A stretch of DNA of 64,000 nt from an uncultured Candidatus Saccharibacteria bacterium. GTDB taxonomy: Bacteria > Patescibacteriota > Minisyncoccia > Phycocordibacterales > UBA5272. This document shows positions 12,145 to 43,425 of the stretch, piece after piece. The notes beneath the pieces were generated by a model. It made no database searches. It saw only the letters and a program-made list of their open reading frames with translations, and was not told the origin of the DNA. The stretch's first letter is position 1. Every line of letters starts with the position of its first letter. The DNA lies in contig CAZFBW010000003.1 in assembly GCA_964517625.1 (NCBI GenBank), positions 46,107 to 110,106 of the forward strand. Direction: 5' to 3'. The position numbers and the translations under genes were made by a program.

Positions 12145-12216
12145 TCCGCGATAGCTCAGCGGTAGAGCAGTTCCCTGTTAAGGAATTGGTCGTAGGTTCG
12201 ATCCCTACTCGCGGAG
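12145..12216 (+). tRNA. tRNA-Asn (anticodon GTT)
   Basis: Hand-folded cloverleaf: acceptor TCCGCGA/TCGCGGA, D-arm GCTC-AGCGGTA-GAGC, anticodon stem GTTCC/GGAAT with loop CTGTTAA, T-arm GTAGG-TTCGATC-CCTAC; CCA not encoded. Confidence 0.85.
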
Positions 12217-12222
12217 CATTAA

Positions 12223-12262
12223 ATATAAAACACCTCTTATATAAAAGGGGTGTTTTATATTT
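12223..12262 (+). terminator. AT-rich hairpin after tRNA (ATATAAAACACC...GGTGTTTTATAT)
   Basis: 12-bp stem directly downstream of tRNA-Asn. Confidence 0.55.
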
Positions 12263-12274
12263 AATATGTTTTGT

Positions 12275-12292
12275 GCGAGTAGGGATCGAACC
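12275..12292 (-). repeat. Inverted 18-nt copy of tRNA-Asn 3' end (T-loop/T-stem/acceptor)
   Basis: gcgagtagggatcgaacc is the reverse complement of 12197-12214 ggttcgatccctactcgc. Confidence 0.65.
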
Positions 12293-12484
12293 GAAGGCTA
12301 CCAAATTTCTTAGGCCGTACTCGGCCTGTTGAAATTGGCAGTGCCGAGTAATCTCGGGAGAGAATCCCTACTCGAATTACGATAAGCGATCCCATACTCA
12401 AACAGGGTGGCTATGAAAATGTAGGATCTCGACCGAACGAAGTGAGGGAGAGGCGATCCTGAACTAGCAAGTTCATGCCTTGGA

Positions 12485-12499
12485 CCTACTCGCGGAGCA
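12485..12499 (+). repeat. Direct 15-nt copy of tRNA-Asn 3' end (cctactcgcggagca)
   Basis: Identical to 12204-12218; pairs with the inverted copy as a 9-bp long-range stem. Confidence 0.6.
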
Positions 12500-12568
12500 A
12501 AAACCAACTAGACAAAAACATGAAAATATTGTAGTGTGACCGCAGGTGGTCTTTTCATAGGAGGGTTC

Positions 12569-12940
12569 ATGGCAATCCCTGCAAATCATTCTTCAATTGA
12601 AACAAACTTGCCCGCATTTCAGCTCGAGAAGGTTCTTTCCGCGCTCGAAAACGGAAAGACAAAAGAGATTGATGGAACTCACAGTCTTTTTGCAGAAGCT
12701 AGATCGTGGCAGGTGACATTCGAAGGTGCGATATATGTCATTGACGAATTTGTCGAAAGGGTTGTATCGGTACACCTCGTTTCTGGTGACCAAAAATTCT
12801 TCAGGTCTCTTTTGCGATCTTTTGAAAGATCTTTGCAGAAAGCTGTCAAAGAAAGAAGTTTTGCCGAAGCGCAAACGATTGATAAAAAAATCAAACAACT
12901 GGAAGCACTCAGAAGTAAGGAGGAGGTAAGCCATGTCTGA
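12569..12940 (+). CDS. Hypothetical protein (123 aa)
   Basis: AGGAGG RBS 5 nt upstream of ATG 12569; track ORF 12536 trimmed. Confidence 0.5.
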   Translation: MAIPANHSSIETNLPAFQLEKVLSALENGKTKEIDGTHSLFAEARSWQVTFEGAIYVIDEFVERVVSVHLVSGDQKFFRSLLRSFERSLQKAVKERSFAEAQTIDKKIKQLEALRSKEEVSHV

Positions 12941-13118
12941 GACCAAAACGAACGAGGAATATCCGGATCAACTGCATCCGTCCCACGATACGCAGATTTC
13001 GTTTGATGCTTCAAGCTATGACGAAATTTGCACGAAGTGCAGAGCAACCGATATCCTAAACGGTGGATGGGGGAACCTTCGTTTCCCTTGCCCCGCCGTT
13101 TCGAAAAAGGAAGAGTAA
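12933..13118 (+). CDS. Small Cys-containing hypothetical protein (61 aa), translationally coupled
   Basis: ATGTCTGA overlap with upstream stop; AAGGAGGAGG RBS; C..C...FPCP. Confidence 0.4.
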   Translation: MSETKTNEEYPDQLHPSHDTQISFDASSYDEICTKCRATDILNGGWGNLRFPCPAVSKKEE

Positions 13119-13144
13119 CTCAAGTATTTCTTTTCCATCCCGAT

Positions 13145-13186
13145 TCCCACCGAAAGCCACCGCGCTTGTCGGTGGTTTTCTTTTTG
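13145..13186 (+). terminator. Terminator hairpin, divergent member of the CCCACCGAAAGC repeat family
   Basis: cccaccgaaagccaccgcgcttgtcggtgg + TTTTCTTTTT. Confidence 0.55.
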
Positions 13187-13259
13187 ACTTTCACGCCGAA
13201 AAGTGGTTGTATATACCTGGGTAAATTGTACCGTGCTTAATTATAGAAAGGGCATTTTC

Positions 13260-13550
13260 ATGAAAGAATTAGCGCAGAAGTTGATTGGTCTAGGCGTCTT
13301 TGTTCTTTTCTGTTACGTTAGCTATCTTTTTGGCGCTTTCTTGACCCTTCACACACTTGTAGCAATCACAGTTATCTGTATTGTGATTACTGTGTGGATG
13401 GCAGCAACACTAGAGGAGCTGGCGAGCTTGCTTACTTTAGGTTTTGGATTCTGCGCTTTAGTTATTAATCTGGTAATGTGGGCAACATATTACTTTACCA
13501 CTAATCAGTCATGGGTAGGCGAATTCTTTTTGAGAAATGTGTTGCGCTAA
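13260..13550 (+). CDS. Small hypothetical membrane protein (96 aa, ~3 TM)
   Basis: ATG 13260 in frame with track ORF 13203; hydrophobic. Confidence 0.45.
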   Translation: MKELAQKLIGLGVFVLFCYVSYLFGAFLTLHTLVAITVICIVITVWMAATLEELASLLTLGFGFCALVINLVMWATYYFTTNQSWVGEFFLRNVLR

Positions 13551-13581
13551 TATGGCGTTGGTATAGTTTAAGGAGATGCTA

Positions 13582-14082
13582 ATGCGTGAAGTTTTGATGG
13601 CAACACCATATCAGTGGGGAGAATTAGGTTCATTTGGCAAAGCGAAATATATGCTCATTCGTCAGCATGAGTTTCCTCATGTGTATAATGATGATGAAAT
13701 CATGTTGTCTGCTGACCATGACAGGTGTTTCGATTGGGACTATGAACACACCAGGAAATGTTTTGATAGGCATACAGGCACCGGCGAAAGGGGTTTTGCT
13801 GAGTGGGTTCAGAGATCTGCATCCGTTAATCAAGTCATGTCTTTCTTAAAAGATGTTTTGAAAGCTGAAGAAAACCACCCGAATGTTGTGTGGACCGGAT
13901 TTCGCATTATGGGAACAGTCAACCGTTCAAATGGGTACACGGTCTGGACACTGCAACTTTTTTCGAAGAATCAAAAAAGTAAAACAAAGGTCTATTCTAG
14001 TCCATTTTCTCCAAATGTTTTTGGTGGGGGTAGGGAATTAGGGTATAGACTACCCTCGAATTCTCTGAAGAGAGTGAAATAA
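13582..14082 (+). CDS. Hypothetical protein (166 aa; DHDRCFDWDYEHTRKCFDRHTG motif)
   Basis: AAGGAG 6 nt upstream of ATG 13582. Confidence 0.5.
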   Translation: MREVLMATPYQWGELGSFGKAKYMLIRQHEFPHVYNDDEIMLSADHDRCFDWDYEHTRKCFDRHTGTGERGFAEWVQRSASVNQVMSFLKDVLKAEENHPNVVWTGFRIMGTVNRSNGYTVWTLQLFSKNQKSKTKVYSSPFSPNVFGGGRELGYRLPSNSLKRVK

Positions 14083-14085
14083 ATA

Positions 14086-14280
14086 ATGGGCCAGGTTATT
14101 ATTTCCGCTGTTGGCTTACCCATCGCTTACGGGTTAATTGTTGTCATTTTGTTTGTTGCGTTCGTCGCTCTCCCCATTTCAACATTTGTTTGGTGGAGAG
14201 ACCAACGCAAGGGGACTTATGAAAAAAAGGTAAACAAGATACGTAGGAACGATCCATGGAAGAAATCTGCAAACCTATGA
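14086..14280 (+). CDS. Small hypothetical membrane protein (64 aa)
   Basis: Single TM, basic C-terminus; weak RBS. Confidence 0.3.
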   Translation: MGQVIISAVGLPIAYGLIVVILFVAFVALPISTFVWWRDQRKGTYEKKVNKIRRNDPWKKSANL

Positions 14281-14369
14281 ATACAAACACCAAGCAAAAT
14301 TTGCTTGGTGTTTTTCTTTTAAATATAAAAACCATTTCAGTATACTTATACTTGCTATACTTAGATTAT

Positions 14370-14579
14370 ATGAAAAAAGCATTACTTTTTTTAATTGCAG
14401 GTATTATAGTTGTTATATTTTTTTATCCCAAACATTATACGGTAGGCACCACCTCTCCGGACCAGTCGCCACCTAATTGTTTTGGTTATCAATCACGTTT
14501 AACACCGATTGGAATTGACGGGGGAACAGATTTTCTTTGTTATGGTATTGTTTTTGGTACCAAAAATACTTTACCTTAA
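14370..14579 (+). CDS. Small hypothetical membrane protein (69 aa)
   Basis: MKKALLFLIAGIIVVIFF TM start; internal ATG of track ORF 14256. Confidence 0.35.
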   Translation: MKKALLFLIAGIIVVIFFYPKHYTVGTTSPDQSPPNCFGYQSRLTPIGIDGGTDFLCYGIVFGTKNTLP

Positions 14580-14580
14580 T

Positions 14581-35381: not shown

Positions 35382-35408
35382 TTGTTTAGTAAAAATGTGT
35401 GCTATAAT
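35382..35408 (+). promoter_or_regulatory. Putative mreB promoter with extended -10 (TGTGCTATAAT) only 9 nt before ATG (near-leaderless)
   Basis: TATAAT at 35403-35408; TTGTTT -35-like upstream. Confidence 0.3.
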
Positions 35409-35417
35409 GGACCAACT

Positions 35418-36431
35418 ATGGGATTTTTTTCACAAAAACTTGGTATCGATTTGGGAACCGCAAACACGCTCGTGTATGTTCCAAAGAGAGGTGTTGTGTT
35501 GGTCGAGCCCTCTGTTGTTGCAGTTTCAGAATTTGATAATCGTATTTTAGCGGTTGGAAATGAAGCAAAAGACATGATTGGAAAAACGCCAGATTCAATT
35601 GTTGCTTACCGACCAATGCGTGATGGCGTGATTGCTGATTATCGCGTAACGGAAGCAATGCTTCGCTACTACATCAACAAAGCGCTTCGTGGTTTTAATA
35701 TTTTTAAACCAGACGTAATGATTTCTGTGCCCGCAGGAGTTACATCAACCGAACGACGTGCCGTCATTGAAGCGGCGATTAAAGCAGGAGCAAGAAATGC
35801 ATATGTGGTGAAAGAACCAATTTTGGCAGCAATTGGCGCCGGTATTAAAATTCACGAACCACAAGGACGCATGATTGTAGACATTGGAGGCGGAACAACA
35901 GACGTGGCCGTGATTTCACTTGGTGGTATTGTTTGTAGTACGTCAGTAAAGTGTGCAGGAAATAAAATTGACCAAGCAATCGTTGATTATATGAAGAAGA
36001 CATACAACCTTTCCATTGGTGACCAGACAGCGGAAGATATCAAAGTAAATATTGGAAGCGCGCTTCCACTTGAAGAGGAGCTCGTTATGAAAGTTAAGGG
36101 TCGCGATTTTATTGCGGGTCTTCCACGAACAGTTGAAGTAAAGACTAATGAAATTGTGAAAGCAATTGATAAAGAACTTCGCCTCATGATTAAAGCAATT
36201 AAAGATGTGCTTCAAGAAACACCTCCTGAACTTGCATCAGATATTATCGACAACGGTATTATCATGTCTGGCGGTTCATCAATGCTTCGTCATTTTCCTG
36301 ATTTGGTTGAACGTCGTACTGGTGTGAAAGCGGTTCTTGCAGAAGATGCGTTTTATTGTGTTGCTAAAGGAACAGGAATCGCACTTGAACATTTGGATAC
36401 CTATAAGCGAAGTATTTTTACGAAGAAGTAA
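35418..36431 (+). CDS. mreB: Rod shape-determining protein MreB (paralog 1, stand-alone)
   Basis: GIDLGTANTLVYV...; full actin-like fold motifs; ATG 35418. Confidence 0.85.
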   Translation: MGFFSQKLGIDLGTANTLVYVPKRGVVLVEPSVVAVSEFDNRILAVGNEAKDMIGKTPDSIVAYRPMRDGVIADYRVTEAMLRYYINKALRGFNIFKPDVMISVPAGVTSTERRAVIEAAIKAGARNAYVVKEPILAAIGAGIKIHEPQGRMIVDIGGGTTDVAVISLGGIVCSTSVKCAGNKIDQAIVDYMKKTYNLSIGDQTAEDIKVNIGSALPLEEELVMKVKGRDFIAGLPRTVEVKTNEIVKAIDKELRLMIKAIKDVLQETPPELASDIIDNGIIMSGGSSMLRHFPDLVERRTGVKAVLAEDAFYCVAKGTGIALEHLDTYKRSIFTKK

Positions 36432-42174: not shown

Positions 42175-43425
42175 ATGTTTGAGCGATTTTTACGTCACTT
42201 TTCAAATGATATTGGTATCGATTTGGGTACTGCAAATACGCTCGTGTATCTCCGTGGGCGAGGCATTGTTATTAATGAACCATCTGTTGTTGCACTTAAC
42301 GCAAAAACTGACCGCGTGGTGGCTGTTGGTAATGAAGCAAAAGATATGATGGGACGCACACCGGCGCATATTCGTATCGTTCGTCCACTTGTTGACGGGG
42401 TGATTTCTGATTATGAAGTAACGGAGGAAATGCTTTCATACCTCATTAACAAAGCAAACGAAATGGTGAAAAAGTTTTTGCGTCCGCGTGTGGTCATTGG
42501 TATTCCTGTTGGTGTGACTAACGTTGAGATGCGTGCGGTGTATGACGCGGCAAAATCAGCTGGGGCGCGCGAGGTATACATTGTTGAAGAACCGATGGCG
42601 GCAGCAATCGGTGTGCACCTTCCAATTCATGAGCCAGTAGGAAGTATGATTGTAGATATTGGTGGCGGAACAACTGACATCGCTGTGATTGCGCTTGGTG
42701 GTGTGGTGCGCTCTAAAAGTTTAAAAGTTGCAGGGGATGTGATGAATACAAATATCATCACCTACATTCGTGACGAGTTTAAAATGCTTATCGGAGAAAA
42801 AACAGCAGAGCACATCAAAATGACCATCGGTGCCGCGATTCCAAGCGAGCACGGCGAAGAAATGACAATCAAAGGACGAGATTTGATTACTGGACTCCCA
42901 CGCGAAGCGGTGATTACTGATGTAGATATTCGCGAAGCAATGTACGGCCCGCTTTCACAAATTGTGGAAGCAATCAAAGAAGTTTTGGAAACCACACCAC
43001 CTGAAGTGCTTTCGGATATTATGCACAAAGGTATTACGCTTTCAGGAGGCGGTGCTCTTATTAGAAATATCACGACACTCCTTAAAATGCAGGTTAAGGT
43101 TCCAATTATTGTTGCGGATGATCCATTAACATGCGTTGCTCGAGGAACAGGTTTTATCCTAGAGGATATAGAGAAGTATAAATATGTAGGAATTCCAAAC
43201 ACCGATGACATATCGTTCCGCGAAAGCAAAACAAGGTTCAAAGCATGTGCGCATCGCAGCACTTATTATTTTTGTTGTACTGCTTTCTTTTATGTGGGAG
43301 CCGGTTCAGGAAACACTTCATCCCGTTGTTGCACCATTACTAAACACGTATGTGACCATACGCGATACGGGGACTGGTATACCTCATGCAATTGTTACTT
43401 TTTTTACAAAGCGAAGCGAATATGA
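42175..43425 (+). CDS. mreB: MreB paralog 2 (operon copy); the frame has no stop until 43425, overlapping mreC by 221 nt
   Basis: Canonical MreB through ...DPLTCVARGTGFILEDIEKYKYV, then ~75 Cys-rich out-of-character residues. Confidence 0.7.
   Translation: MFERFLRHFSNDIGIDLGTANTLVYLRGRGIVINEPSVVALNAKTDRVVAVGNEAKDMMGRTPAHIRIVRPLVDGVISDYEVTEEMLSYLINKANEMVKKFLRPRVVIGIPVGVTNVEMRAVYDAAKSAGAREVYIVEEPMAAAIGVHLPIHEPVGSMIVDIGGGTTDIAVIALGGVVRSKSLKVAGDVMNTNIITYIRDEFKMLIGEKTAEHIKMTIGAAIPSEHGEEMTIKGRDLITGLPREAVITDVDIREAMYGPLSQIVEAIKEVLETTPPEVLSDIMHKGITLSGGGALIRNITTLLKMQVKVPIIVADDPLTCVARGTGFILEDIEKYKYVGIPNTDDISFRESKTRFKACAHRSTYYFCCTAFFYVGAGSGNTSSRCCTITKHVCDHTRYGDWYTSCNCYFFYKAKRI

Follow-up and report, generated by a model that had tools for sequence, protein, structure and literature searches.

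In islands and prophages inserted by tyrosine integrases, a direct repeat of a tRNA 3′ end, which starts in the T-loop, bounds the insert, and direct repeats of this kind are the classical attL/attR signature. The incoming copy of the 3′ end keeps the tRNA intact, close strains vary at such sites, and elements accrete there in tandem. Other described systems with comparable features are the cis-mobilizable elements (CIMEs), which are deletion derivatives of integrative and conjugative elements (ICEs), and accretion arrays; integron cassettes and the folded att sites of CTX phage and of integrative mobile elements exploiting Xer (IMEX); and tRNA-like RNAs, among them the tRNA-like domain of transfer-messenger RNA (tmRNA), viral tRNA-like structures, mascRNA-type RNAs, and small RNAs of 3′ external transcribed spacers. 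The Patescibacteria, or candidate phyla radiation (CPR), have tiny genomes in which few mobile elements are recognised and almost no non-coding RNAs are characterised. Here we analyse a stretch of 64,000 nt from an uncultured bacterium (contig CAZFBW010000003.1, positions 46,107–110,106; hereafter the window), whose only tRNA gene, tRNA-Asn(GTT), is followed by a 281-bp insert with no credible open reading frame (ORF). The insert contains a unit of a cassette family whose members are small, non-coding, tightly folded, and matched to the tRNA behind which they lie; we are confident that this family is real and that the window unit is a member. It is apparently undescribed, as full-text literature searches returned no description of such elements, which does not prove that none exists. 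As to its origin, we consider it about 50% probable that positions 12218–12499 are an array of cassette units that enter tRNA 3′ ends by recombination and displace the original end.

All of the features listed above for tyrosine-integrase islands and prophages recur at this locus and its relatives. However, the units are 100–280 bp long and not kilobases, no integrase was found in cis or nearby, each unit also contains the target sequence in inverted form along with a folded core that is conserved and covaries, and one family of cores serves many tRNA identities, the arms being re-matched to each. As in CIMEs and accretion arrays, att-like repeats flank units that have no recombinase of their own and lie in tandem beside the target gene. 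Unlike CIMEs, which have no conserved structure, the small structured unit is here the conserved entity, and no parent element was seen. The order of parts (a target-derived arm, a hairpin tip, an inverted arm, cargo, and a second copy of the target) is that of integron cassettes and of the folded att sites of CTX phage and IMEX. Like integron cassettes, the units are small and promoter-less, some hold a single ORF, and they are arrayed at one docking site; as in integron attC and CTX-phage att sites, folding is strand-specific and an extrahelical hairpin (P1) sits inside the paired arms. By contrast, there is no IntI, attI, or Pc here, and the repeats are tRNA-derived and not attC-like (the R and L box consensus was not searched for explicitly). 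In addition, the docking site is a tRNA gene instead of attI or dif, and the cargo is mostly a non-coding junction instead of an ORF. With tRNA-like RNAs the units share their position in the 3′ trailer and an acceptor-like stem that can stack on a T-stem-like helix and carries the tRNA's own discriminator and trailer. They differ in having no T-loop, the loop bases being paired to their complement, and in matching no Rfam model; their acceptor helix is often incomplete, a terminator precedes them, and they are polymorphic in copy number and content.

Table 1 Features of the tRNA-Asn locus in the window
Feature	Position	Strand	Basis and remarks
tRNA-Asn(GTT)	12145–12217	+	ARAGORN; Rfam RF00005, 69.8 bits
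Palindromic hairpin	12218–12265	both	24-nt arms, 92% complementary; U-tracts on both strands
Inverted copy GCGAGTAGGGATCGAACC	12275–12292	+	18 nt, exact reverse complement of tRNA-Asn 12195–12212
Unit-1 core, class 2	12293–12363	+	Fold; three-way-junction layout common to 8 other class-2 units; compensatory changes
Direct partial copy ATCCCTACTCG	12364–12374	+	11 nt, perfect, equals tRNA-Asn 12201–12211; ends unit 1
Truncated second unit	12381–12459	+	Homologous to positions 208–290 of contig L009 of a close relative; z, SNP, and comparison data
25-nt insert with hairpin TGAAC-tagcaa-GTTCA	12460–12484	+	Separates GATCC from CCTAC; in the window and in contig L008 of a close relative, not in L009
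Distal direct repeat CCTACTCGCGGAGCA	12485–12499	+	15 nt, perfect, equals 12204–12218
Terminator-like hairpin GACCGCAGGTGGTC, then TTTTC	12538–12551	+	40 nt past the distal repeat

A preliminary description of the segment had reported a tRNA-Asn gene followed by inverted and direct partial copies of its own 3′ end, and ARAGORN, Rfam, and repeat analysis agree on this arrangement (Table 1). What is copied downstream is the last ~24 nt of the tRNA, that is, the T-loop, the 3′ strands of the T-stem and of the acceptor stem, the discriminator, and CA. The 18-nt inverted copy and the 15-nt distal copy are exact, as had been stated, and the 11-nt copy near 12365, then taken for a near-copy, is a perfect direct repeat as well. 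Chance would place the 8-mer CCTACTCG 0.66 times in the full 64 kb, yet a single stretch of 300 nt holds four copies, and none of 100 shuffles attained the window's total of five. These repeats are no assembly artefact, because two independent assemblies agree on them: L004 (Logan SRR32548950) is identical to the window here and L003 (ENA ERZ27258560) differs by three single-nucleotide polymorphisms (SNPs). We take the distal repeat, comparable to an attR, for the original 3′ end of the tRNA after displacement.

Both strands of 12268–12505 fold better than shuffled sequences (z of about −4). Taken alone, 12273–12378 folds as a compact junction (z = −5.3 on the plus strand and −5.85 on the minus strand) and 12379–12499 folds at chance level (z = −0.12). 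Because the fold signal is confined to 12273–12378, the segment is best described as one complete unit followed by a 5′-truncated one. Unit 1 is closed by a helix of 11–12 bp, P2, in which 12276–12287 of the inverted copy pairs with 12363–12374 at the middle direct copy. Its core consists of a long hairpin, P3 (about 12298–12341), which nests the smaller hairpin GGCCG-tact-CGGCC (12313–12326), and of a short hairpin, P4 (CCGAG-taat-CTCGG, 12344–12357). Both of these short hairpins had been named in the preliminary description, as had TGAAC..GTTCA (12460–12475) and AGGATC/GATCCT (12423–12428 and 12455–12460), and all are present. The same description took a 9-bp stem between the inverted and distal copies, enclosing a ~200-nt segment, as the long-range fold. 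This complement does exist (12275–12283 with 12485–12493), but it is a weaker alternative to P2, which closes the main fold, and the distal half that it would enclose folds at chance. The truncated unit 2 retains a degenerate copy of the tRNA end, GCGATCCCaTACTC (12386–12399), the 3′ half of a P3, CTATGAAAATGTAGGATC, a P4-like hairpin, and GGCGATCC; all three SNPs of L003 sit in this remnant.

Two short motifs recur in and around the units. A piece of ~15 nt, GATAAGTGTACTCAYGG, splits GAT from CCTAC in the distal tRNA-end copy of L041, L049, L052, L046, and L025, at the spot where the 25-nt insert lies in the window; the likeness of window 12381–12399 (GATAAGCGATCCCATACTC) to it was judged by eye only. 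A purine-rich motif, GAGCGAAGCGAG or GAACGAAGTGAG, is found at loop or linker positions in or beside the units of many loci, among them L015, L020, L046, L011, and L070, and at 12432–12446 in the window.

The arrangement is not peculiar to the window. Metagenome contigs were scanned for TTCGATCCCTAC separated by a spacer of 55–85 nt from GTAGGGATCGAA, which yielded 64 loci of the form tRNA, 55–85 nt, inverted T-arm. At 54 of these, one real tRNA (Asn, Lys-TTT, Lys-CTT, Ile, or Tyr) stands on one side, and the inverted copy is not part of any tRNA. The presence of the inverted copy at 64/64 loci follows from the design of the scan; it is also kept in L008 and L009. In 28 of the 53 metagenomic loci, 11 to 24 nt of that tRNA's acceptor sequence recur exactly, in direct orientation, between +125 and +350, and some direct copies extend past the tRNA into its trailer; in 11/53 there is no direct match of at least 8 nt in this interval. 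Because the scan fixed the T-arm sequence, the other tRNAs on the same loci are the decisive control. Unselected Leu(TAG), Leu(TAA), Ser(TGA), and Cys(GCA) genes are followed at +50 to +75 by inverted copies of their own T-arms, and the unselected Leu, Ser, and Cys tRNAs have direct copies of their own 3′ ends too, up to 22 nt long. Upstream controls were mostly empty, with two inverted matches (8 and 13 nt) and five direct matches (8 to 18 nt). The inverted copy and the small size had been taken to indicate a decayed or rearranged att site, a one-off event. That proposal fails: both belong to a conserved design that recurs at 64 loci and at unselected tRNAs, with compensatory changes in the core.

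The cores between the tRNA-derived arms are of at least four types, all of them three-way junctions. Class 1 has the form GAAG, P3, GUACNG, a 5-bp P4 with an invariant GUA triloop, and AGAU, and shows compensatory changes in 10 of its 13 predicted pairs in an alignment chosen regardless of pairing. An alignment of 33 class-1 sequences contains 93 double-change cells against 25 in shuffles, a comparison in which pairing was partly required at extraction. The class-1 covariance model (R1) found 48 matches with E < 1e-4 in 437 kb of related loci; neither the window (E ≤ 1) nor viral loci gave a match, and 16 pattern matches to the class-1 core in IMG/VR are attributed to chance, having no covariance-model support. 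The same class-1 core is shared by tRNA-Lys, -Asn, -Cys, and -Leu loci, its arms fitting the tRNA concerned in every case. In class 2, to which the window unit belongs, 91.6% of cells are paired, compared with 82% after shuffling and ~50% with slid partners, and there are 19 double-change cells against 7.3 in shuffles; the window unit was part of this alignment, and no model built without it was searched.

Several asymmetries concern the strand that folds. Among distinct class-1 cores, G·U pairs outnumber A·C mismatches 11 to 2, and one class-2 pair is G·U in 7/9 sequences. By minimum free energy, the tRNA strand is the more stable one for 39/44 class-1 cores (p = 1.6e-7) and for eight of nine class-2 units. 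We favour a folded strand of tRNA polarity, either RNA or single-stranded DNA; the folded core could be an RNA product or a recombination structure formed by single-stranded DNA. In class 1, the stems of hairpin P1 covary as well, and its loops are of two conserved types, AACUGCUU and CUGGGAG (for example in L023, L048, L026, L066, L073; L047, L072, L042), which hints at a specific protein or tertiary contact. A tRNA-derived structured RNA had also been suggested for the window. The covarying three-way junction bears out the structure, but no Rfam family matches it: scans of the window and 18 related loci with Rfam 15 at gathering thresholds matched the tRNA alone. Sub-threshold Rfam matches are to generic long-hairpin miRNA models set off by the palindrome, and a relaxed ARAGORN search with introns gave tRNA-Asn alone, which disposes of a second tRNA, an intron-containing tRNA, and a tmRNA on either strand.

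Close relatives differ at precisely the repeated sequences. The orthologous locus was reached through the ORF for a 123-aa protein just downstream, which has only three relatives in a collection of 5.8 billion proteins; these led to contigs L008, L009, and L010. Common to the window, L008, and L009 are the tRNA end and the inverted copy, with a terminator between them, as well as the distal direct repeat and the flank beyond it. The unit-1 core of the window is its own, whereas L008 and L009 have a different one in common. L008 also has a different terminator (in place of 12218–12265, between a tRNA end and an inverted copy that are both retained) and a different acceptor complement. It further contains a 685-bp cassette (L008:184–868) between tRNA-end repeats of 19 and 15 nt, which encodes a 182-aa membrane-like ORF and after which the sequence rejoins the window at the 3′ part of unit 2. 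All breakpoints among the three versions fall at tRNA-derived repeats. In addition, 12445–12576 is identical in the window and L008, yet the adjacent ORFs are ~10% divergent. The view of the duplicated 3′ ends as the scar of an integration is therefore upheld in part: relatives differ exactly at the repeats and a terminator-like hairpin follows the distal copy, but the event was not a one-off.

Other contigs add detail to this comparison. L010 starts at the distal direct repeat (window 12485) and L005 ends inside the tRNA 3′ end; both come from SRR19226368, and these contig ends fit a sample in which the locus exists as several alleles and the assembly graph branches at the repeats. L003 follows the window, apart from its SNPs in unit 2, up to 13032, and from 13033 shares the dense differences of L008 (window 13033–13550), a switch that points to recombination between strains, which has left a mosaic close to the downstream side of the locus. 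A contig scan by way of the GDSL hydrolase gene upstream of the tRNA returned only distant, non-syntenic relatives; protein homologues of the hydrolase at ~50% identity showed no synteny, and the contig of an 88% relative stops inside the tRNA.

Turnover extends to the rest of the family. Orthologous tRNA-Lys loci share the housekeeping genes around them but vary in core class and in the length of the insert (233–1380 nt), and L016 carries two tandem units. In L074 (113–1075), two direct repeats of ~170 bp surround a 620-bp segment with a 121-aa membrane-like ORF that has no family match, and each repeat is made up of the tRNA end GGAGCA, a terminator, an inverted copy, a class-2 core, and a direct copy. 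The ORFs of the cassettes had no Pfam or PADLOC match. On the minus strand of L042 (~440–600), a class-1 module (P1, P3, and P4) interrupts the loop of P1 in another copy of the unit's 5′ part, a nested insertion which suggests that the module is itself a discrete insertable piece. A different frame is seen in L061 (1125–1275) and in L045, L017, and L055 (minus strand), where a pseudo-tRNA-Asn 5′ half stands directly upstream of the real tRNA-Asn. This half comprises the 5′ strand of the acceptor stem, the start of the D-arm, and a hairpin like an anticodon arm, with a class-1 core between the D arm and the anticodon arm. The core module is therefore found 5′ of tRNA genes too, in another tRNA-derived frame.

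Terminator-like hairpins stand at both ends of the array. The palindrome at 12218–12265 scores as an intrinsic terminator on both strands. In the family, the tRNA 3′ end makes a palindrome with its inverted copy, and the terminator hairpin is the tip of it; a terminator-like palindrome directly 3′ of the tRNA and before the unit is found in the window and in 41/54 loci. Beyond the array, the hairpin at 12538–12551 is a candidate for the original terminator of the tRNA. Terminator-like hairpins follow the distal repeat in 8/25 loci, the window included, against 1/25 control windows; a terminator in this position fits a distal repeat that is the original tRNA end with its own terminator.

The pathway that we propose starts from a unit of ~100–170 nt, non-coding and strongly structured, attached to tRNA 3′ ends in Paceibacterota chromosomes. 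Such a unit is built from a replacement tRNA 3′ end with a palindromic terminator, an inverted copy of the T-loop and of the 3′ strands of T-stem and acceptor, a covarying two-hairpin core, and a direct copy of the 3′ end. When a strand of tRNA polarity folds on its own, these two copies pair as P2 and close the three-way junction. Entry would be by Campbell-type recombination within the T-loop and 3′ end of the tRNA, with a recombinase supplied in trans. The incoming cassette would restore the tRNA and bring its own terminator, while the original 3′ end and terminator would be pushed downstream and become the direct repeat. Repeated events, together with deletions between tRNA-derived repeats, would produce arrays, truncated units, and ORF-bearing cassettes. 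For the window, an empty site is predicted in which the tRNA-Asn body joins straight to ...CTCGCGGAGCAAAAACCAACTAGAC, and the circle or attP junction is predicted to read ...GGCGATCC(25-nt insert)CCTACTCGCGGAGCATTAAATATAAAAC. We give this insertion mechanism roughly even odds; the recombination route and the trans-acting recombinase are what we infer.

Several observations weigh against insertion by recombination. No recombinase was found in Pfam scans of the ORFs from 3002 to 24774, and no gene family is linked to the cassettes across the 54 loci. Among the sequences compared there is neither an empty tRNA-Asn site nor an excised form; the window, L008, and L009 differ in content. An element of 130–280 bp is also very small for a double-stranded circular intermediate. 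The proximal acceptor complement matches the tRNA end at 7–8 of 8 positions in 33/54 loci, and many distal copies have decayed or are absent. Selection or homogenisation therefore acts on the inverted copy, something for which a passive integration scar offers no explanation. The acceptor-like helix has no strand bias (G·U 14, A·C 19), and the canonical terminator between tRNA and core in 41/54 loci argues against simple co-transcription. We considered the acceptor-like helix as a selected RNA helix and rejected this, since its pairs lack a wobble bias and decay of the distal strand is common. Because the complement of the tRNA end persists, two other readings stay alive, namely a tRNA-like RNA that co-evolves with its tRNA and a folded single-stranded or guide-like substrate.

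The first would make each unit a vertically inherited gene for a tRNA-like non-coding RNA, or a 3′ trailer RNA, co-oriented with the tRNA, and we think this rather unlikely, at perhaps half the weight of recombinational entry. Such an RNA would have an acceptor-like 5′ strand, a T-stem-like helix, the three-way-junction core, and a 3′ end that is that of the tRNA (discriminator and CA). Its arms would be kept matched by selection or gene conversion, and tRNA-processing enzymes would excise it, or it would pair with the tRNA 3′ end. The covariation of the cores speaks for it, as do the preference of wobble pairs (G·U 11 vs A·C 2) and of folding energy for the tRNA strand, the housekeeping neighbourhoods free of mobile-element genes, and an acceptor complement that stays perfect even where the distal copy has decayed. 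The plus-strand topology also equals that of a tRNA minihelix in which hairpin P1 replaces the D and anticodon arms. However, an intrinsic terminator stands between tRNA and core in those 41/54 loci, the acceptor-like helix is often incomplete and shows neither compensatory changes nor wobble bias, and direct copies overrun the functional tRNA end into the trailer. Near-identical strains differ in content, orthologous loci carry different core classes, truncated or tandem units, and ORF cassettes, and unit 2 of the window is a remnant that does not fold.

It is also conceivable, though a little more doubtful again, that the units serve as cassettes in single-strand recombination of the integron or CTX kind, or in RNA-guided recombination, with tRNA genes as docking sites. 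Two short segments around P1 jointly complement ~20–25 nt of the tRNA 3′ end, and would here serve as a re-programmable address. Pairing with the direct copy would recreate the tRNA gene's end in duplex form within the folded single strand, and a host recombinase would then join this strand to the gene. A constant core could in this way be re-targeted to any tRNA, those seen so far being Asn, Lys, Ile, Tyr, Leu, Ser, and Cys.

An ordinary scar, left by one or more large islands or prophages at tRNA-Asn that were later deleted, with the inverted copy as an accidental rearrangement, we hold to be improbable. The direct repeats of the tRNA 3′ end are the attL/attR signature that it calls for, strains are polymorphic at the repeats, and unit 2 looks decayed. 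Nevertheless, family-wide conservation has already largely refuted it: the small layout, inverted copy included, recurs at no fewer than 64 loci and at least eight tRNA species, each with matched sequences, and the cores are conserved with compensatory changes. In addition, no integrase or phage gene lies within ~10 kb of tRNA-Asn, blastn against phage and plasmid collections gave no match that would point to a prophage or plasmid remnant, and IMG/VR contains neither the 19-mer of the tRNA end nor the inverted arrangement. A dispersed element of the miniature inverted-repeat transposable element (MITE) or repetitive extragenic palindrome (REP) kind was rejected too, as there is no second copy in the 64-kb window and the family copies adjoin tRNA or tRNA-like sequence; their repeats are copies of the tRNA end of 11–24 nt, as against the terminal inverted repeats and short target-site duplication of MITEs.

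Least probable of all is a tRNA-like or tmRNA-like RNA gene on the minus strand, convergent with tRNA-Asn, sharing a bidirectional terminator with it, and ending in a tRNA-like T-loop, T-stem, and acceptor: the terminator is indeed bidirectional, unit 1 folds equally well on that strand (z = −5.85), and the true T-loop sequence UUCGAUC is found there, but relaxed ARAGORN finds neither a tmRNA nor a second tRNA, Rfam has no match on either strand, wobble and energy asymmetries favour the plus strand family-wide, and the extra hairpin P1 would break the stack of acceptor and T-stem.

From a biological perspective, the locus points to folded cassettes that are matched to tRNAs, form a widespread family absent from Rfam, and lie 3′ of many of the tRNA genes examined. 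If the cassettes are mobile, they would represent a new kind of minimal integrative element whose address is the complement of its target tRNA, and tRNA genes would act in these organisms as sites of cassette capture, small ORFs included. If they are instead RNA genes, their products would be tRNA-like RNAs of a new class, each evolving in step with its own tRNA.

The surroundings of the array are those of an ordinary chromosomal region, with genes for an AddA-like helicase, PriA, two MreB paralogues, ProRS, LysRS, PBP2/FtsI, and a GDSL hydrolase, the last directly upstream of tRNA-Asn. Judged by protein similarity, the host lineage is Paceibacterota (CPR): the LysRS of the window is 90% identical to a protein labelled ‘Patescibacteria group bacterium’ and ~80% identical to ‘Candidatus Paceibacterota’ proteins, and it is 79% identical to a protein on the 775-kb contig that yielded locus L037. 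Downstream of the array, five plus-strand ORFs lie at 12569–12940 (123 aa), 12933–13118 (61 aa), 13260–13550 (96 aa), 13576–14082 (168 aa), and 14256–14579 (107 aa). These five ORFs, spanning 12569–14580, have no convincing Pfam or PADLOC match and may be accessory DNA next to the tRNA. Finally, the two MreB paralogues (35382–36431 and 42175–43425) stand 6 kb apart beside PBP2 and FtsI-like genes, a full gene set for rod shape.

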